NCBI GenBank assembly: GCA_030390025.1
Contig: CM059432.1
Location: 28,150,001-28,214,000 of the forward strand
Length of the DNA: 64,000 nucleotides
Source of the DNA: Squalus acanthias
Taxonomy: Eukaryota
Reading direction: 5' to 3'
The notes below the pieces were generated by a model that worked only from the letters and a program-made list of their open reading frames with translations, made no database searches and was not told the DNA's origin. Both the position numbers and the translations under genes were made by a program. Below, piece after piece: positions 1 through 58,304 of the stretch (the first letter of the stretch is position 1; every line of letters begins with the position of its first letter).

Positions 1-491
1 GAGAACTGCCCTGCTGTTCTTCAAATAATATCACAGGACGTTTTACAGGCTGACTGGACCTTTGTTTAACATCTTGTTTAAAATATCAGGTGGTATATAT
101 AGGGTCCATGTGGTCCACTAGACTAGTTTCAATCATCTAAGGATGTCAGAGAAAAAAAATCCCAGGTTTTTTCATCCCTGATTGGCCTTGGTGGATTTCT
201 TTGTTTAAATTCTCCCAGGAGCTTACATGACTGTTGGTGGGTTTGTGAGCTGGTGGGTATGGGTGCCTAATCGTGCTGCTCCAGGCTTTTTCTAAATTAT
301 TCATTCATGGGATGTGAGCGTCACTGGCAAGGCCAGCATTTATTGCCCATCCCTAATTGCCCTTAAAACGGTGGTGGTGAGCCACCTTCTTAAACTGCTG
401 CAGTCCAATGCTGTTGGGGAGGGAGTTCCAGGATTTTGACCCAGCGACGATGAAGGATGGTCTTTTCCTGCCCGTCGATTTTATATGTTTG

Positions 492-642
492 CATCTCATC
501 CAAAAGGTGGCACTTGCGACAGTGCGGCACTCCCTCAGTACTGCTCTTGAAGTATCAGCCTAGATTATGTGCTCAGTGGGGCTTGGAACTCATGACGTTC
601 TGACTTAGAGGTGAAAGTGCTACCACTGAGCCAAGGCTGACA
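492..642 (-). mobile_element. SacSINE1-like DeuSINE, 5' part (continues at about 1-80 after intervening inserts)
   Basis: Reverse complement of the tRNA-like head and Deu-domain start seen at 48370-48805. Confidence 0.7.
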
Positions 643-5201: not shown

Positions 5202-5515
5202 AACACGGTGGCATAGTGGTTAGCACTGTTGCCTCACAGCGCCAGGGACCCGGGTTCGAATCCAGCCCCGGGTGACTGTCTGTGTGGAGTTTGCACATTC
5301 TCCCCGTGTCTGCGTGGGTTTCCTCCGGGTGCTCCGGTTTCCTCCCACAGTCCAAAGATGTGCGGGTTAGGTTGATTTGGCTATGATAAATTGACCCTTA
5401 GTGTTAGGGGGATTAAATACGTGGGGTTACGGGGATAGGGTGGGATATGTGTCGGTGCAGGCTCGATGGGCCGAAATGGCCTCTATCTGCACTGTGGGGA
5501 TTCTGTGATTCTGTG
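5202..5515 (+). mobile_element. Full-length HE1-type V-SINE inserted in a decayed CR1 fragment (about 5135-6090)
   Basis: A box TGGCATAGTGG, B box GGTTCGAATCC, V-domain (tgtggagtttgcacattctccccgtgtctgcgtgggtttcctccggg), (ttctgtga)n tail, AGGAC duplicated at 5197-5201 and 5516-5520. Confidence 0.9.
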
Positions 5516-30470: not shown

Positions 30471-30558
30471 TATGTAAAACAGGTGATAACGAGTTGGAAG
30501 CCTGTTTTACATCTCTCCCAATTTTTATTTCCATTGTAGCCAAACCTGAGTTGGAACT

Positions 30559-31691
30559 ATTCATTCTCAAAATGTGGACATCACTGGCAGGGCCAGCATT
30601 TATTGTCGATCCCTACTTGCCCTGAGAAGCTGGTGAGGGCCTTCTTCATTTAGCAGTTTGATACAACTAAGTGGCTTGCTGGGACACTTCAGAGGGTAAT
30701 TAAGAGTTAATCATGTGCGGGTCTTGAGTCACATATATGCCAGTCCGAGTAAAGGTCATTAGTGAACCAGTTGGGCTTTTACAACAATACAATAGCTTCA
30801 TGGTCACTTTTATTGATTTTATTTCCAGATTTTTTAAAAGCTGAATTCAAATTCTCAAACTGTCATGATGGGATTAGAACTCTAAGGGCTGGATTTTCAT
30901 TGACCCGTGGAGGCGGGTTTGGAGGCGTGTGGGGGGTTAAAATTGCGAAAACTGGCGGGTGGGCACAAGTCCGCCTCTATCTCGCCTCCACGCAATTTTC
31001 ATTAAATCGTGTCTGCTGGTCCCGACTCCGTCCCGCATTTAAGAGGCGGGATAGGCTGTTAAGGCCCTTAACAAGCACTAAATTGGCTCTATAATGCAAT
31101 TTTGAAAGGCCTTTGTGATTTTAACCCTTGATCTATGTGAAGCACGCCTGTTGTGAACCACAATTGTGAAACCTGGCGGGAGCACATTTGGATAGCTAAC
31201 TATCAGCTGCAGGTCGACTATTACAACGGAGATGTGACAAAGGTAGTAGTAGTATTAGGCCTGAAAGTCGCCTCTGAAGCTGATGCATTGAAGGTCTTCA
31301 GAGACTGCCTGGCCTTTTCCTTTTTTTTTCTTTTTTTTTTCTCTCTCTTCTCTCTCTCTCTCTCCTCATTTTGCATCTGTGAGGTCCTCTCACAGCAAAG
31401 GCCAAGCAGTCTCTGACCTTCAATGCAGCAGCAATGATGACATCATCTGAGGCGACTTTCAGACTGAAACCACTAATTGGGTCATGGGTTCCCACAAGCT
31501 GAAACTCAATTGCCCAATTAGGTGAAAATTGCATCAATCTCCCACATTCAATTGCAGTCGGGTGGATAACATGAAAAGCGGATGACACGACCCCAACCCG
31601 CCCCAGTATCAAAATCCAGCCCTTCTCTGGATTGTTATTCCAGGCCTCTGGATCACTAGTCAAGTAATATAACCACAACACTACTGTACCC
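30559..31691 (-). mobile_element. tRNA-headed SINE sharing both ends with the LINE at 51813-57732; interrupted by the MITE at 30886-31622
   Basis: Head matches 51813-52140; tail matches 57630-57725. Confidence 0.8.
30886..31622. mobile_element. Harbinger-type MITE (family B)
   Basis: TIR gggctggatttt / aaaatccagccc; TAA on the left; inverted relative at 44218-44977. Confidence 0.85.
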
Positions 31692-31840
31692 ACTGCTGAT
31701 AATAAGTGCCTAAAATGCAAAACTGCCCATTTTCCAGCATTAAATCCCTCATCTCAGAGACCATGTGCACCCCACAAAAAGGAAGAAATTATTTAGAAAT
31801 AAAATGAATCCAAATTCAAAAGCAAAAACATGCACTAATA

Positions 31841-44155: not shown

Positions 44156-44217
44156 CTTGGAGCACAAAGATGCAGCGAGTCAGTTCAGTAGCAATCTTTA
44201 CAACAATATTACTCTAA

Positions 44218-44977
44218 GGGCTGGATTTTGTCTTGGGGTCGGGTTGGGGTCGTGTAATCCGCATTTCGTGTTCCCAACCCGACTCCAGATTAATGTGGAT
44301 GCCAGATGCAATTTTTACTTAATTGGGCAATTGAGTTGGAGCATGTGGGAACCCATGAACTAATTAGTGTTTTCAGTCTGAAAGCCGCCTCTGATGATGT
44401 CATCATTGCTGACTGGCTAGTCTGAGAGACTGTTGGTGAGAGAGGACCTGCCTGGCTTTTGATGTGGGTGGACCTGGATGCAAAAATGGGTGGTGGTGGT
44501 GTAGAGGAGAAGGGAAAGAGAGAGAGAGAGAGAGAGTTTTTGCCAAGCAAGTCCTCCCAGGCAGTCTCTGAAGACATTCAATGCAGCAGCATCAGAGGCG
44601 ACGTTCAGACCTAATACTACCTTCATCACATCTCCGTTGTAATAATGGACCTGCAGCCGATAGTCAGCTATCCACTTGTGCTCCCGCCAGGTTTCACTGG
44701 AGTGTTTCACACCAGGCGTGCTTCACGTCAGAAGAGGGTTAAACTAGCTACAGCATTTCAAAATGGCATTACAGAGCCAATTTAGAGCTTGTTAAGGGCT
44801 TTAATGGCCTCTCCCGCCTCTTGAAGGCGGGACGGAGTCGGGAACCCCGTGACTGATTCTGTCAAAATTGCGTGGAGGCGGGATGGAGTCGGGATGGGGT
44901 CGGAAACCCCGACCCCGCAAATTTAACCCCCCACACGCCTCCAAACCCGACTCCATGGGTCATTCAAAATCCAGCCC
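44218..44977. mobile_element. MITE family B copy
   Basis: Perfect 13-bp TIR gggctggattttg / caaaatccagccc; TAA TSD on both sides. Confidence 0.9.
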
Positions 44978-45519
44978 TAACTTTTCGCCAAGGGTCACAA
45001 TCCAAACCAATGGTTTTCCCCAGGGATACCCTCCAGAAAGCTGAAGCACATTGCACGACAGAGTGAAGGGACACAGGTTTGAGCCTGCAGTTCCCATTTG
45101 GGAGCTCCTAGTTTCAATCGTACCATTGTGGTTATTTGTTGGATGGTAGTTGTGTTTTAATGGGGTCCTTTCACTTGCTGTATGTATCTAGAATAACTGT
45201 TACCTAATTGTGTTCCTTTGCCATTTTTTTTTTACTGAAGACTAGGAAGTGGGGGGGAAATAGCCCTGAATCTGAACAGTAAGCATCCCAAAGCTGGGCA
45301 GCTGTGCCTGGGGGCCAAAGGCAAGTGGAACAGGAAGTCTGCTGGCGCCCAGAAGGTGAAGGGGAGGTGGGCCACAATTGACCCCCTGCCTATATTATAA
45401 TTAGATTATCTTATGGTGCAGTGTGTTGATAGGCCAGGGCACTGTGGTACAAGTTTCCAAGATTTCCCAACATGGACAGTTCCTAACGTGTCTAAGCATT
45501 GAGCAAGTGAACAAAAGGA

Positions 45520-46977: not shown

Positions 46978-48090
46978 TTGTCAGCTGTGGCTCAGTGGTA
47001 GCTGTCTTGCTTCTGTGTCAGAAGGTTGTGGGTTCATAGTCCCACTCTAGACACCAGCACATAATCAGCACTTCAGTGTAGTACTGAGGGAGTGCTGCAC
47101 TGTTGGAGGTGCAGTCTTTCAGATGAGACGTGAAACCTGGCCCCAGTCTGCCCTCTCAGGTGGATGTAAAAGCTCTTATGGCACTATTTCAATCAAGCGA
47201 GAGTCTAACCACCTCCCCTTGACATTCAACGGCATTACCATCGCCAAATCCCCCACTATCAACAACTTGGGGGTCACCATTAACCAGAAACTTAACTGGA
47301 CCAGCCACATAAATACTGTGGCAAAAAGAGCAGGTCAGAGGCTAGGTATTCTGCGGCGAGTGTCTCACCTCCTGACTCCCCAAAACCTTTCCACCATCTA
47401 CAAGGCACAAGTAAGGAGTGTGATGGAATACTCTCCACTTGCCAGGATGAGTGCAGCTCCAACAACACTCAAGAAGCTCAACACCATCCAGGATAAAGCA
47501 GCCCGCTTGATTGGCACCCCATCCACCACCTTAAGCATTCACTCACTCCACCGTGGCTGCAGTGTGTATCATCTACAAGATGCACTGCAGCAACTCGCCA
47601 AGGCTTCTTCGGCAGCACCTCCCAAACCCACGACCTCTTCCACCTAGAAGGACAAGGGTAGCAGGCGCATGGGAACACCACCACCTCCAAGTGCCCCTCC
47701 AAGTCACACACCATCTTGACTTAGAAGTATATCGCCGATCCTTCATCGTCACTGGGTCAAAATCCTTGAACTCCCTACCTAACAGCACTGTGGGAGTACC
47801 ATCACCACATGGACTGCAGCGGTTCAAGAAGGCGGCTCACCACCACCTTCCCAAGGTCAACTAGGGATGGGCAATAAATGCTGGCCTTGCCAGCGACACA
47901 TACATCCCATAAGCGAATAAAAAAAAACACTATTTCAAAGAAGAGCAGGGGAGTTCTCTCCAGTGTCCTGGCCAATGTCTATCCCTCAACCAACATCACT
48001 AAAACAGATTTGTCATTATCTCATTGCTGTTTGTGGGACATTGCTATGTTGGCTGTCACTTTTCCTACATTCCAACAGTGATTACACTAC
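46978..48090 (+). mobile_element. SacSINE1-like DeuSINE split by a LINE insertion
   Basis: Deu-domain breaks at 47192 and resumes at 47928. Confidence 0.85.
47193..47927 (+). mobile_element. 5'-truncated copy of the single-ORF (Zenon-like CR1) LINE; other 3' fragments at about 296-460, 36195-36420, 50907-51368 (all minus)
   Basis: YKAQVRSVMEYSPLA; AATAAA-containing A tail; 11-bp TSD cactatttcaa at 47182-47192 and 47928-47938. Confidence 0.9.
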
Positions 48091-48369
48091 AAAAAAAGTG
48101 TAGACCCAGGAAAACCTTCCCAAAGAAATTTTAGCAACAGGAAAAGTCCGTCATAGCCAAGCAAACACGTCACTCTCGTATAGATCCTGCTTTCACCAAA
48201 TTTCTTAATCCCTCTCTACCAAAACAAATTGACTCTTCACATGATTTTTTTTTCACATAGAATTACAATAGAAATGACAACATGGAAACAGGTCCTTCGG
48301 CCCAACCAGTCCTACTGGTATTTATCCTCACTGCACATGGTGAGACAGCTTTCTTCAGGGAACCCCCGG

Positions 48370-50752: not shown

Positions 50753-51524
50753 TTTAATTTGAGTAATTTTTAAATTGCTGTCGGCAAATGTGTTAGGAAC
50801 AAAAAATGGGCTCAAAGCAGAAGTGTCACGATAGCTGGTCGTACAGTGGATTTGCACAAACCCAGACTGATTGAATAAAAGTCTTCCGGGTATCAGAACC
50901 TTATGATTTTTTTATTCGTTTATGAGATCAGGGCGTCGCTGGCAAGGCCAGCATTTATTGCCCATCCCTAATTACCCTTGAGAAGGTGGTGGTGAGCCGC
51001 CTTCTTGAACCGCTGCAGTCCGTGTGGTGAAGGTACTCCCCCAGTGCTGTTAGGGAGGGAGTTCCAGGATTTTGACCCAGCGACGATGAAGGAGCGGCGA
51101 TATACTTCTAAGTCAGGATGGTGCGTGACTTAGAGGGGAACTTGGAGGTGGTGGTGTTCCCATGCGCCTGCTGTCCTTGCCCTTCTAGGTGGAAGAGGTC
51201 GCGGGTTTGGGAGGTGCTACCGAAGAAGCCATGGCAAGTGCATCTTGTAGATGGTACACACTGCAGCCACGGTACGCCAGTGGTGGAGGGAGTGAATGTT
51301 TAAGGTGGTGGATGGGGTGCCAATCAAGCAGGCTGCTTTGTCCTGGATGGTGTCGAGCTTCGTGAGTGAAGTGAGTTTGGCGAGTCTAATTGAACCGCTA
51401 GTCCAGAGGCACTAACAATGGGAATTTCGCCCCCTAAAAGTCTTGCGTATAGGACTTACAGCAAACAGGCCATTCGGCCCAACAGGCCTACGATAGGCTG
51501 GTGTTTATGCTCCACACAAGACTC

Positions 51525-51810
51525 CTCCCACTATATTTACTGGTGCCCCATTTCTCCATTTACTGGTACCCCCAATTCTCCCATTTAATAGTGCCCTCTA
51601 CCAGTGCCTGCACTTACTGGTGCCCTCCCCCAATTCCCCCATTCACTGGTGCCCTCCCCCAATTTCCCCATTCACTGGTGCCCTCCCCCAATTCCCCCAT
51701 TCACTGGTGCCCTCCCCCATCTTTTACCATTTACTGGTGCCCTCTTCCAAATCCCCCCTTTAATAGTGCCCTCTGCCAATGCCCCCATTTACTGGTGCCC
51801 TCTGCCCAAT
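51525..51810. repeat. About 29-bp minisatellite (cccaattcccccattcactggtgccctcc), resuming at 57733-57825
   Basis: About 9-10 imperfect units left of the LINE and about 3 to its right. Confidence 0.9.
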
Positions 51811-51812
51811 GT

Positions 51813-54800
51813 GGGAATGGTAGCATAGTGGTTATGTTACTGGACTAGTACTCCAGAGACCTGGGCTTATAATCCATGAGACGTGAATTCAAATCCCACC
51901 ACAGCAGCTAGGGAATTTAATTTCAGTTAGTTTAATAAATCTGGAATAAAAGAAAAGCTAGTATTAGTGACCATGAAACTGCCAGATTGTCATCTGGTTC
52001 ACTAATGTCTTTTAATGAAGGAAATCTGCTGCCTTTTCCTGGTCTGGCCTGTATGCAACTCCAGACCCACAGCAATGTGGTTGACTCTTAACTGCCCTCT
52101 GAAATGGCAGTATCAAGCCACTCAGTTGTATCAAATCGATACAAAAAACAATAATAACATAATCGGATGGACCACCCATCCGGCATCGACCTCGGCACTG
52201 GCTTCGGACACGACAAAGGCACACCCAGCCCAGCCGGCCCTGCAAAGTCCTCCTCACTAACATCTGGGGACTTGTGCCAAAATTGGGAGAGCTGTCCCAC
52301 AGACTAGTCAAGCAACAGCCTGCTATAGTCATACTCACAGAATCATACCTTTTAGCCAATGTCCCAGACTCTTCCATTACCATCCTTGGGCTTATCCTGT
52401 TCCACCGGCAGGACAGACCCACCAGAGATGGCGGCACAGTGGTGTACAGTTGGGAGGGAGTGGCCCTAGGAGTCCTCAACATTGACTCCGGAACCCATGA
52501 AGTCTCATGGCATCAGGTCAAATATGGACAAGGAAACCTCCTGCTGATTACCACCTACCGCCCTCCCTCAGCTGATGAGTCAGTACTCCTCCATGTTGAA
52601 CACCACTTGGAAGAAGCACTGCGAGTACTCTGGGTGGGGGACTTCAATGTCCATCACCAAGAGTGGCTCGGTAGCACCACTACTGACCGAGCTGGCCGAG
52701 TCCTGAAGGACATAGCTGCCAGTCTGGGCCTGCGACAGCTGGTGAGAGAACCAACACAAGGGAAAAACCTACTGACCTCGTCCTCCCCAATCAATCTGTC
52801 ACAGATGCGTGCTGTGGGCCATCAGCAGCAACAGAATTGTATTCCACCACAATCTGTAACCTCACGGCCTGGCATATCCCTCACTCTACCATTAACATCA
52901 AGCCAGGCGACCAACCCTGGTTCATAGAACATAGAACAGTACAGCACAGTACAGGCCCTTCGGCCCTCGATGTTGTGCCGAGCATTGTCCGAGACCAAGA
53001 TCAAGCTATCACACTCCCTATCACTCTGGTGTGCTCCATGTGCTTATCCAATAACCGCTTGAAAGTTCCTAAAGTGTCCGACTCCACTATCACAGCAGGC
53101 AGTCCATTCCACACCCCAACCACTCTCTGAGTAAAGAATCTACCTCGGACATCCCTTCTATATCTCCCCCCATGCACCTTATAGTTATGCCCCCTTGTAA
53201 CAGCTGCCTCTACCCGAGGAAATAGTCTCTGAACATCCACTCTATCTATCCCCCTCATCATCTTATAAACCTCTATTAAGTCGCCTCTCATCCTCCTCCG
53301 CTCTAAAGAGAAAATCCCCAACTCCCTCAATCTTTCCTCATAAGACCTCCCCCCGAAACCAGGCAGCATCCTGGTAAATCTCCTTTGCACTCTTTCCAAT
53401 GCTTCCACGTCCTTCCTATAGTGAGGTGACCAGAACTGCACACAATATTCCAAATGTGGTCTCACCAAGGTCCTGTACAGTTGCAGCATAACCTCACGGT
53501 TCTTAAACTCAAACCCTCTGTTAATAAACGCCAACACACCATAGGCCTTCTTTACTGCTCTATCCACTTGAGTGGCAACCTTCAGAGATCTGTGGATATG
53601 AACCCCCAGATCCCTCTGCTCCTCCACGTTCCTCAGAACCCTGCCGTTGACCCTGTAATCCTTATTCAAATTTGCCCTACCAAAATGAATCACCTCGCAC
53701 TTATCAGGGTTAAATTCCATCTGCCATTTTTCGGCCCAGCTCTGCATCCTATCAATGTCTCTTTGCAGCCTACAACTGCCCTCCACCTCATCCACTACTC
53801 CACCAATCTTGGTGTCATCAGCAAATTTACTGATCCACCCTTCAGTCCCCTCCTCCAAGTCATTGATAAAAATCACAAACAGCAGAGGACCCAGCACCGA
53901 CCCCTGTGGCACACCGCTGGTAACTGGTCTCCAGTCCGAAAATGTTCCATCCACCACCACCCTCTGCCTTCTATGAGATAGCCAGTTACTTATCCAATCG
54001 GCCAAATTTCCCTCTATCCCACAACTCCTTACTTTCTTCATGAGACGACCATGGGGAACCTTATCAAACGCCTTACTAAAATCCATGTATACGACATCAA
54101 CTGCTCTACCTTCATCTACACACTTAGTTACCTCCTCAAAGAATTCAATCAAATTTGTTAGGCAAGACTTACCCTTCACGAATCCGTGTTGACTATCCCT
54201 GATTAAGTTGCCCCTTTCCAAATGGTCATAAATCCTATCCCTCAGGACCTTTTCCATTATCTTACCAACCACCGAAGTAAGACTAACCGGCCTATAATTA
54301 CCAGGGTCATTCCTATTTCCTTTCTTGAAGAGAGGAACAACATTCGCCACTCTCCAGTCCTCTGGCACCATCCCCGTGGACAGTGAGGACCCAAAGATCA
54401 AAGCCAGAGGCTCTGCAATCTCCTCCCTTGCCTCCCAAAGAATCCTAGGATATATCCCATCTGGCCCAGGGGACTTATCGACCCTCAGGTTCTTCAAAAT
54501 TGCTAAAACATCTTCCCTCAGAACATCTACCACCTCCAGCCTATCCACCTTTATCACACTCTCATCCTCAAGAACATGGCCCCTCTCCTCGGTGAACACT
54601 GACGAAAAGTATTCATTCATCACCTCTCCTATCTCTTCTGACTCCATGCACAAGTTCCCACTACTGTCCTTGACCGGCCCTACCCTCACCCTGGTCATTC
54701 TTTTATTTCTCACATAAGAGTAAAAAGCCTTGGGGTTTTTCTTGATCCGACCCGCCAAGGACTTCTCATGCCCCCTCCTCGCTCTCCTAAGCTCTTTTTT

Positions 54801-57732
54801 TAGCTCATTCCTTGCTACCTTGTACCCCTCAATCGACCCAACTGAACCTTGTTTTCTCATCCTTACATACGCTTCCTTTTTCCTCTTGACTAGACATTCA
54901 ACCTCTTTTGTGAACCATGGTTCTCTCACTCGGCCATTTCCTCCCTGCCTGACAGGGACATACCTATCAAGGACACGCAGTAATTGCTCCATGAAAAAGC
55001 TCCACTTTTCGTTTGTGCCTTTCCCTGATAGTTTCTGTTCCCATCTTATACTCCCTAATTCTTGCCTAATCGCATCATAATTACCCCTCCCCCAATTATA
55101 AACCCTGCCCTGCCGTATGGCCCTATCCCTCTCCATTGCAATAGTGAAAGTTACCGAATTGTGGTCACTATCTCCAAAGTGCTCTCCCACATACAAATCA
55201 AACACTTGGCCCGGTTCATTACCCAGTACCAAATCCAACGTGGCCCCACCTCTTGTCGGCCTATCCACATATTGTGTCAGGAAACCCTCCTGCACACACT
55301 GTGCAAAAACTATCCCATCCGAACTGTTTGACCTATAAAGGTTCCAATCAATATTTGGAAAGTTGAAGTCACCCATGACAACTACTCTGTGACCTCCACA
55401 CCTATTCATAATCTGCTTTGCAATTTCTTCCTCCACATCTTTATTACTATTTGGGGGCCTGTAGAAAACTCCTAACAACGTGACCGCTCCTTTCCTATTT
55501 CTAACTTCAGCCCATATTACCTCAGACGGCAGATCCCCCTCGAACTGCCTTTCTGCCGCTGTTAAACTATCCTTGATTAACAATGCTACTCCTCCACCTT
55601 TCTTACCAACTTCCCTACTCTTACTGAAACATCTATACCCCGGAACTTCCAACAACCATTCCTGTCCCTGTTCTAACCATGTCTCCGTAATGGCCACCAC
55701 ATCGTAGTCCCAAGTACCAATCCACGTTCAATGAGGAGTGTAGAAAAGCATGCCAGGAGCAGCACCAGGCATACCTAAAAATGAGGTGCCAACCTGGGGA
55801 AGCTGCAACACAGGACTACATGCATGTTAAACAACGGAAGCAGCATGCTATAGACCGAGCTAAGCGATCCCACAATCAACGAATCAGATCAAAGCTCTGC
55901 AGTCCTACCACATCCAGTTGTGAATGGTGGTAGATCATTACACAACTGACAGGAGGAGGAGGCTCCATGAACATCCCCATCCTCAATGATGACAGAGCCC
56001 AGCACGCGAGTGCAAAAGACAAGGCTGAAGTGTTTGCAACCATCTTCAGCCAGAAGTGCTGAGTGGATGATCCATCTCGGCCTCCTCCTGAGGTCTCCAC
56101 CATCACAGAAGCCAATCTTCAGCCAATTCGATTCACTCCACGTGATATCAAGAAGCAGCTGAGCGCACTGGATACAGCAAAGCCTATGGGCCCCGGCAAT
56201 ATCCTGGCTGTCATGCTGAAGAGTTGTGCTCCAGAACTAGCCGCGCCTCTAGCCAAGCTGTTCCAGTACAGCTACAACACTGGCATCTACCCGACAATGT
56301 GGAAAACTGCCCAGGTATGTCTGCCCACAAAAAGCAGGACAAATCAACCCAGCCAATTACCGCCCCATCAGTCTACTCTCAATCATCAGCAAAGTGATGG
56401 AAGGTGTCGTCGACAGTGCTATCAAGCGACACTTACTCACCAATAACCTGCTCACTGATGCCCAGTTTGGGTTCCGCCAGGACCCCTCAGCTCCAGACCT
56501 CATTACAGCCTTGGTCCAAACATGGACAAAAGAGCTGAATTCCAGAGGTGAGGTGAGAGTGACTGCCCTTGACATCAAGGCAGCATTTGACCGAGTGTGG
56601 TACCAAGGAACCCATGTAAAATTTAAGTCAATGGGAGTCAGGGGAAAAATACGCCACTGGCTGGAGTCATACCTAGCACAAAGGAAGATGATTGTGGTTG
56701 TTAGAGGTCAATCATCTCAGCCCTAGGACATCACTGCAGGAGTTCCTCAGGGCAGTGTCGTCGGCCCAACCATCTTCAGCTGCTTCATCAATGAACTTCC
56801 CTCCATCATAAGGTCAGAAGTGGGGATGTTTGCTGATGACTGCACAGTGTTCAGTTCCATTCGCAACTCCTCAGACAATGAAGCAGTCAATGCCCGCATG
56901 CAGCAATACTGGATGATATTCAGGCTTGGGCTGATTAGTGGCAAGTAACATTCGTGCCACACAAGTGCCAGGCAGGAACTATATCCAACAAGAGAGCATC
57001 TAACCACCGTCCCTTGACATTCAATGGCATTATCATCGCTGAATTCCCCAACATCAACATCCTGGGGGTCACCATTGACCAGAAACTTAACTGGACCAGC
57101 CACATAAATACTGTGGCTCCAGAGCAAGTCAGAGGCTGTGCATTCTGCGGCGAGTGTCTCACCTCCTGACTCCCCAAAGCCTTTCCACCATCTACAAGGC
57201 ACAAGTCAGGAGTGTAATGGAATACTTTCCACTTGCCTGGATGAGTGCAGCTCCAACAACACTGAAGAAGCTCGACACCAAACAGGAGAAAGCAACCCGC
57301 TTGATTGGCAACCCATCCACCACGTTAAACATTCACTCTTTCCACCACCGGTGCCCCGTGGCTACAGTGCGCACCAACTACAAGATGCACAACAGCAACT
57401 CGCCAAGGCTTCTTCGACAGTACCTCCCTAACCCACGACCTCTACCACCTAGAAGAACAAGGGCAGCAGGCGCATGGGAACAACATCACCTCCAAGGTCC
57501 CCTCCAAGTCAGACACCATCCTGACTTGGAAATATATTGCGGTTCCTTCATAGTCGCTGGGTCAAAATCCTGGAACTCCTTCCCTAACAGCACTATGGGA
57601 GTACCTTCACCACACAGACTACAGCAGTTCAAGAAGACTGCTCACCACCACCTTCTCAAGGGCAATTAGGGATGGGCGATAAATGCTGGCCTTGCCAGTG
57701 ATGCCCACATTCCGTGAATGAATAAAAAAAAA
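51813..57732 (+). mobile_element. Near-full-length decayed single-ORF LINE (CR1 group, Zenon-like) with a tRNA-like 5' head; interrupted by a CR1
   Basis: APE endonuclease (ILTES, YRPP, GDFN) at 52250-52800; RT (QFGFR, LDIKAAFD, GVPQGS, FADD) at 56300-56900; C-terminus to 57669; AATAAA plus poly(A). Confidence 0.88.
52925..55725 (-). mobile_element. Young CR1 LINE with uninterrupted 899-aa ORF2 (EN plus RT), truncated just inside the endonuclease N-terminus
   Basis: ORF 53001-55700 with ITETW, GDFN, SDH, PQGS, FADD; (gttctat)2 tail; GTTCA at 52920-52924 and 55726-55730. Confidence 0.97.
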
Positions 57733-58304
57733 AGTCCCCATTCACTGGTGCCCTCTCCCAATTCTCCCATTCACTGGTGCCCTCACCCAATTCCCCCATT
57801 CACTGGTGCCCTCCCCCAATTCCCCTCTTTATTTATAATCTGAAATACACTGCCTGAAAGGATGGTGGAAGCAGATTCAATAATAACTTTCAAAAGGGAA
57901 TTGGTTATATACTTGAAAAGGAAGATTTTGTAGGACTATGCAGAAAGAGCAGGGGAGTGGGACTAATTGGATAGCTCTTTCAAAGTGCTGGCACAGGCCG
58001 GATGTGCTGTAAGATTCTATGAAGTCCTAAATTCCTGTGGTGTCACACTTACTTCCTGTAACACTTTTCCTGTCACACTGCTGTTCTAAAACAGTGCAAT
58101 TTCTAACCCACCGTAAGCAACGCAGCAAGAGATTTGCGAGCAGAATATTAGAAATTGAGGCACAGACGGAGCCTATTGTTCATTGGAAAAGGATTCAGGA
58201 TAGCTGGTCAACAACTCTTGTCCATGGACTGGGCAAGGGAAGGGAATAATTTTTAAAAAATGAAGCTCTTCTGGTTAGTACTATGCTTATCAAGAAGAAG
58301 CAAC

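Follow-up and report, generated by a model that had tools for sequence, protein, structure and literature searches.

Does the tRNA-like sequence at the start of a coding retrotransposon belong to its family, and could it serve as a promoter? The question is raised by a long interspersed nuclear element (LINE) of the spiny dogfish, Squalus acanthias, found in a window of 64,000 nucleotides (assembly GCA_030390025.1, contig CM059432.1, forward-strand positions 28,150,001 to 28,214,000; coordinates are counted from the first base of the window). An initial annotation had described this host LINE, which is interrupted by a nested CR1 element, as an autonomous lineage with just one open reading frame (ORF) and a tRNA-derived 5′ head, and the seven elasmobranch consensus sequences compared here, in their visible parts, all support that description. 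Judging from sequence, we lean slightly towards the view that the family concerned, elasmobranch Zenon, is an autonomous LINE driven by RNA polymerase III (Pol III), with translation independent of a cap.

The tRNA-derived head of elasmobranch Zenon

By sequence the host is an elasmobranch Zenon that has already been catalogued (Stuart et al. 2026, PMC13343379). The supplement of that paper displays the initial 400 nt of every consensus row, and our comparisons with these rows were made by eye. Seven rows of 2.9-3.3 kb represent elasmobranch Zenons of five species (white shark, whale shark, catshark, spiny dogfish with three rows, and stingray). The head, the 5′ untranslated region (UTR) and the ORF start are contiguous in all seven, each of which begins 5-10 nt upstream of an intact A box, and the host 5′ end at 51813 corresponds to the first base of the SquAca_Zenon-1 consensus. 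The B box is canonical in six of the seven rows, and the anticodon loop and the extra arm drift across the rows while the A and B boxes hold. The three Zenon rows from hagfish and coelacanth open with unrelated sequence and are headless. At the sequence level, the junction between head and endonuclease is thereby confirmed as a family trait, not a chance adjacency. The initial annotation had allowed that the junction might be confined to one copy, or that full-length copies might carry a different 5′ UTR and an ORF1; neither proved to be the case, the visible rows sharing the junction and the same UTR, with no ORF1.

Public contigs agree with this 5′ end. Parts of the stretch from head to endonuclease are present in 20 of the 24 listed public runs, from at least six organisms. 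Positions 51790-52925 were mapped against three DNA-type runs (51,064, 97,459 and 61,155 contigs), and unrelated flanks precede 51813, 8 bases ahead of the A box, in 459 contigs of run X1 and 559 of run X6; the family 5′ start therefore lies there. The stretch 52117-52337 is bridged by one contig of run X6, and 52108 is joined to 52238 in 13 contigs from three runs. Among the contigs listed, none spans head to endonuclease in one piece, which in a filtered listing is no argument against the junction. At the protein level, the Zenon endonuclease has matches of 69-75% among the predicted proteins from whale shark and horn shark, and the protein homology search gave one match among 3377 candidates. 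In a horn shark gene model (P0001), two immunoglobulin V-type domains are joined to a piece of Zenon endonuclease, probably as a gene-prediction artefact. DNA motif searches, with a pattern specific to the host's subfamily, gave no match in metagenome contigs; they gave none in viral contigs and a single chance match, in a Bacteroidetes metagenome-assembled genome, among prokaryote genomes.

The A box, the anticodon-like arm and the B-box-like stretch lie where they had initially been annotated. Evidence for the head is weak in the single copy and strong in the family, because two letters of the family, A for C at 51851 and G for A at 51887, both taken from public contigs, turn the anticodon loop and the B box canonical again. 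The Rfam tRNA model scored 18.2 bits (E 0.13; cut-off 29 bits) on 141 nt, its D, anticodon and T arms aligning at model positions 7-64, where the variable region takes up an insert of 23 nt, with no acceptor stem. ARAGORN called no tRNA at the head, and its relaxed mode was uninformative, the head surfacing only at threshold 70 as one of 195 hits in the window. A scan of both window strands for paired A and B boxes, allowing one mismatch, returned only two pairs, namely the head and a short interspersed nuclear element (SINE) at 5209/5252. The public contigs also give family letters for a second hairpin that the initial annotation had not recorded (51865 G>A and a gap at 51877) and that has other sequence in the rows of three other sharks and is missing from that of the ray. 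As a whole the head folds no better than shuffled sequence (z -0.1). Among five stretches folded, the UTR at 52040-52150, which is best shared with a short derivative of the LINE, folds better than shuffles (z -2.6, 4/200).

The head lacks the cloverleaf with acceptor stem and the short variable loop of a tRNA-Thr(AGT) gene. Its anticodon is AGT in four of the five species and ATT in the whale shark consensus, and this anticodon is the sole pointer to a Thr parentage, which is unproven. In their stems, the tRNAs for Gln, Ser and Arg presumably come as close to the head as tRNA-Thr does.

Architecture and family membership of the host LINE

The single ORF of the host encodes an apurinic/apyrimidinic endonuclease (APE) and a reverse transcriptase (RT), and is collinear with relatives of 944-983 aa (Table 1). 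Pfam searches matched Exo_endo_phos in the APE frame (E 1e-7) and RVT_1 at 56328-57118 (E 4e-15); the stop codon of ORF2 is at 57669, and an A10 tract occupies 57724-57733, in agreement with the APE frame, RT and AATAAA/poly(A) end annotated at first. An inner AATAAA ~45 nt upstream is kept in five of the six window copies and mutated in the host. No trace of ORF1 was found in the host, where 350 nt precede the ORF frame and the longest ATG frame within them is 81 aa. While the lack of ORF1 in the initial annotation holds, the ~3.1 kb that remain without the CR1 are not a full length: consensus lengths put full-length Zenon at 3.24-3.31 kb, and the host minus its insert reaches only ~3.11 kb because ~165 nt near 52780 have also been deleted. 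Nor are the missing ORF1 and the poly(A) tail oddities, as had been supposed, since both are known Zenon traits (PMC13343379).

That paper, in its available parts, describes elasmobranch Zenons as more than 84% alike, ORF1-less, poly(A)-tailed and absent from repeat repositories, refers to Zenon as already named in the whale shark genome, and calls the poly(A) tail unique to Zenon within the CR1 group. Such a tail is found here as A10 in the host and as A tails in the copies at 47180 and 50907. Its column of intact ORFs gives 0-3 intact for denominators of 59 to 2313 copies, so the Zenon family looks largely decayed. In an RT tree of 34 rows without labelled references, the host lies outside the 100/98 pair formed by the two canonical CR1s of the window, the deeper forks being weak. 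With no ORF1, a poly(A) end and an RT apart from those CR1s, the host departs from canonical vertebrate CR1. It has the 5′ tRNA-derived head with A and B boxes of a SINE2, and like a SINE2 its family showed no internal TTTT in the parts compared (55731-56975 in one copy), but it is a 3.3-kb APE-RT element; short, non-coding and non-autonomous describes only the derivative at 30555-31694.

The nested CR1 retains an unbroken 908-aa frame (53001-55727, minus strand) and is therefore much younger than the host Zenon; its insertion site is uninterrupted in 399 contigs of run X5. Poly(A), target duplications and 5′ truncation show that the Zenon copies were inserted by target-primed reverse transcription. 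The copy at 47180-47927 sits, with a duplication of ~9 bp, in another SINE (46979-48095, plus strand) that is presumably of Deu type. At 297-642 (minus strand), the front of the same SINE type comes first and, ~37 nt further on, the terminal 180 nt of Zenon; either Zenon and this SINE are nested here for a second time, or the SINE has a tail of Zenon origin.

Table 1. Coordinates of the host LINE, its parts and related elements in the window
Feature	Position	Strand	Basis or remark
tRNA-derived head	51813-51901	+	78 of 89 letters as in the SquAca_Zenon-1 head, plus one additional base (count by eye)
A box TAGCATAGTGG	51821-51831	+	TRGCNNAGTGG matched in 7/7 elasmobranch consensus rows (by eye)
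Anticodon-like arm CTGGA-CTAGTAC-TCCAG (AGT)	51840-51856	+	Family loop CTAGTAA
Second hairpin, at variable-arm position	51861-51878	+	Near copy of the anticodon arm in the host's subfamily
B box GAATTCAAATCC	51885-51896	+	Canonical with family letter G at 51887
Remaining 5′ UTR, ~260 nt	51902-52162	+	Common with the short derivative as far as ~52145
APE frame with Arg-rich N-terminal stretch, first motif near 52250	52163-52774	+	Pfam
ORF2 remainder: linker, RT, C-terminus	55730-57669	+	Several stops and frameshifts; no sense-strand TTTT
3′ UTR, AATAAA and poly(A)	57670-57733	+	Sequence
Host LINE: near-full-length, decayed elasmobranch Zenon interrupted by nested CR1	51813-57733	+	Consensus comparison, Pfam, loose-end peak
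Nested CR1, canonical, 5′-truncated	52924-55725	-	GTTC duplication (4 bp) at 52920-52923 and 55726-55729
29-bp minisatellite, insertion target of host Zenon	51535-51810	.	Resumes at 57736-57825
Short derivative: head and 5′ UTR joined to the last 80-90 nt of the LINE	30555-31694	-	MITE-like insert at 30885-31624
5′-truncated Zenon copy	47180-47927	+	Poly(A), target duplication ~9 bp
5′-truncated Zenon copy	50907-51368	-	A tail

Transcription and translation of the headed LINE

Runs of four or more T (T4+), the candidate terminators of Pol III, are scarce in this family. No TTTT occurs within the visible 400 nt of the seven elasmobranch rows, although A4-A9 runs are common there; T4+ runs are present in the three rows from hagfish and coelacanth. 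The host contains three TTTT (52010, 52034 and 52350), all private to this copy, and none at 55731-57723, and the copies at 47180 and 50907 have none either. The nested CR1, taken as a control, has 12 T4 and 4 T5 runs in 2.7 kb. A further control set comprised the best 80 of 479 confirmed related loci from metagenomes, 51 of them with ORFs of 800+ aa. None of these 51 ORFs has one T4 run or fewer (minimum 3, median 6.4 per kb), and three lack T5. None of the 80 loci is close to the shark copies at the DNA level, and no upstream pair of A and B boxes was seen in any of them, 34 of the 51 contigs extending 250 nt upstream.

Start codons show a further difference. Ten ATGs lie in 51813-52330, none of them in the endonuclease frame, whereas, among relatives with ORFs of 900+ aa, an in-frame ATG precedes the endonuclease in all 23 whose first motif could be recognised. 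Only one undeleted consensus row, that of stingray, can be read up to this motif, and its conserved ATG misses the frame by one base; the SquAca-2 row, which has a deletion, carries that ATG in frame. At 52104-52115 of the consensus rows, a strong-context ATG has a TAG at codon 3, and its frame relative to the ORF varies by row. In whale shark, three gene models get into the endonuclease by differing frame changes. Thin as they are, these frame data agree with an RNA that has no cap and an unusual mode of initiation, as in ribozyme-bearing LINEs, whose uncapped, ribozyme-cut RNAs are reportedly translated (PMC13725137, citing Ruminski 2011).

We propose that an ancestor of the Zenon of sharks and rays gained a head derived from a tRNA at its 5′ terminus, where it would act as an internal type-2 Pol III promoter with TFIIIC bound to the A and B boxes. 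Pol III would start 5-10 nt ahead of the A box and read ~3.3 kb with no terminator. Translation of the resulting uncapped RNA would begin by cap-independent entry at the ORF start, at a non-AUG codon or, by frameshifting, from the AUG that is conserved out of frame. Loss of internal sequence from the headed LINE would then yield a ready-made SINE such as that at 30555-31694. We give roughly even chances to this fuller account, namely an autonomous Pol III LINE with a 3.3-kb terminator-free RNA and cap- and AUG-free translation, which would predate the shark-ray split and give rise to SINEs by deletion.

Several points weigh against transcription by Pol III. RNAs made by Pol III are short and lack a cap, and a poly(A) end with AATAAA is a Pol II trait. 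With composition held, the T4 deficit of the host copy is not significant: codon shuffling gave 2.65 T4 against the one observed (P 0.21), dinucleotide shuffling 2.8 TTTT against three, and base shuffling of the 3′ part 2.7 against none (P 0.054); for T3 runs in the host, P was 0.045. The coding strand is T-poor (20.2%, the lowest relative having 21%), and the control hosts are mostly AT-richer than the Zenon host. Of the 51 control contigs, only 34 extend as far as 250 nt ahead of the ORF. In addition, private changes in 55731-56975, where one copy was seen, could have erased T4 runs of the family, and the missing AUG is that of a decayed host copy and of a single consensus row compared visually. 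In Lepidoptera, Zenon and the short element derived from it also manage without a Pol III head, according to the available text of PMC6740152.

Alternatively, the head is the true family 5′ end but the coding RNA comes from Pol II, with the head or the UTR behind it serving as a Pol II promoter, or TFIIIC binding only helping, and the T-poverty being compositional. We regard this as possible though rather unlikely. The composition-controlled T4 result, the AATAAA and poly(A) end and the headless state of the other visible Zenon rows agree with it, and a capped RNA is easier to translate; it has more difficulty with a 5′ end set 5-10 nt before the A box in every elasmobranch row, with boxes conserved from rays to sharks, and with an AT-rich UTR that is likewise free of TTTT. 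Cap-dependent scanning would also be impeded by the numerous upstream ATGs, none of them in frame.

The head might instead work as an RNA element, either cut like a pre-tRNA from host read-through transcripts or recruiting ribosomes, like the ribozymes of R2, RTE and Ingi. Such a role would explain why the 5′ end lies near tRNA position 1, why the second hairpin is kept with differing sequence in four sharks and why an in-frame AUG is missing, and ribozymes in other LINEs offer a precedent. It nevertheless appears improbable for a head whose Rfam match ends short of an acceptor stem, whose folding is that of shuffled sequence, whose second hairpin is absent from the ray, and whose best-kept letters are the promoter boxes. 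Least of all do we expect a one-off chimera, in which a truncated SINE came by chance to precede a 5′-truncated LINE. A SINE-like element with the same head exists in the window, and the contigs listed include none from head to endonuclease, but the contiguity in seven rows from five species refutes it, and the bridging contigs stand against it as well.

Short derivatives, known systems and implications

The short derivative is 73-77% identical to the LINE in head and UTR and 86% in the tail, and therefore has a history of its own. A single copy is present in the window, and its head start recurs as a loose end in nine contigs of run X16. Either the LINE took the front end of a SINE, or the headed LINE gave rise to the SINE by deletion; likewise, the head was captured either from a SINE or directly from a tRNA. 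A 14-letter motif of the UTR had no occurrence in the literature text searched. As far as the accessible parts of the sources describe them, CORE and Deu SINEs with L2 tails (Luchetti 2017, PMC5499810) do not fit the derivative, and neither do HE1 and SacSINE1, the only shark SINEs named in the MetaSINE work (PMC4824008).

A separate tRNA SINE lies at 5203-5500 on the plus strand, with its A box at 5209 and its B box at 5252. It looks like the shark V-SINE HE1, and its T-arm letters are those of the visible white shark and whale shark Zenon heads. The MITE-like (miniature inverted-repeat transposable element) insert of the derivative measures 740 bp and has a second copy, 77% alike (30885-31624 and 44216-44978). 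Its terminal inverted repeats are GGGCTGGATTTT..AAAATCCAGCCC and its duplication is of TTA/TAA type; we assume that it is Harbinger-like.

The published systems below are compared from the accessible portions of the papers. The host shares with the elasmobranch Zenons CarCar, RhiTyp, ScyCan, HypSab and SquAca_Zenon-1/2/3 an APE-RT ORF, the lack of ORF1, a poly(A) tail and a length of 3.2-3.3 kb, and the whale shark preprint (10.1101/443036) has a "CR1-Zenon like LINE" that belongs to the same family. The lepidopteran SIDE Persaeus, derived from Zenon (Wang et al. 2019, PMC6740152), resembles the derivative at 30555-31694 in joining the 5′ and 3′ ends by internal deletion; unlike it, Persaeus is described as lacking both tRNA homology and a Pol III promoter. 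In bivalves, Zenon is reported as a SINE partner, not as a headed LINE (PMC11481361). RTE-1_DAn and related elements (Kojima 2018, PMC5786205) are single-ORF LINEs said to carry a tRNA-like sequence that matches many SINE2; they differ from Zenon in belonging to the RTE clade, and the tRNA-like part was treated as a nuisance match with no claim of Pol III transcription. Bov-tA, SINE2-1_ACar, CoeSINE4 and SINE2_Gav (PMC4494074, PMC5786205) have the layout of the derivative, with a tRNA head, a LINE 5′ part and a LINE 3′ tail, but their head stands on a deleted non-coding LINE, whereas that of Zenon stands on a full coding LINE. R2, RTE and Ingi (PMC5786205, PMC13725137) are single-ORF elements translated from uncapped RNA, as proposed for Zenon; their 5′ end is cut by a ribozyme from host transcripts, while Zenon would use an internal Pol III promoter.

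The tRNA head is apparently a trait of Zenon so far unremarked. The string "trna" is absent from the main texts of PMC13343379 and 10.1101/443036 and from the Stuart supplement, "promoter" from the main text of PMC13343379, and neither paper, in its accessible text, remarks on T-runs or the start codon. Apart from the sentence on RTE-1_DAn, no earlier account of the Zenon head was found in the open literature; Repbase, Dfam, subscription journals, Zenodo files or preprint supplements may hold one.

SINEs are defined as Pol III retroposons, and LINEs as coding elements transcribed by Pol II or together with their host (PMC4494074, PMC5786205, in their accessible parts). A coding LINE under Pol III, if true, would break this rule and provide a natural 3-kb Pol III mRNA encoding a protein of ~950 aa. 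SINE birth would then proceed head-first on a LINE, followed by deletion, which reverses the published route, as far as it is described there, of deletion first and head later. If Zenon is driven by Pol II, the head would still be a structural feature that has escaped notice in a family of which thousands of long copies exist.

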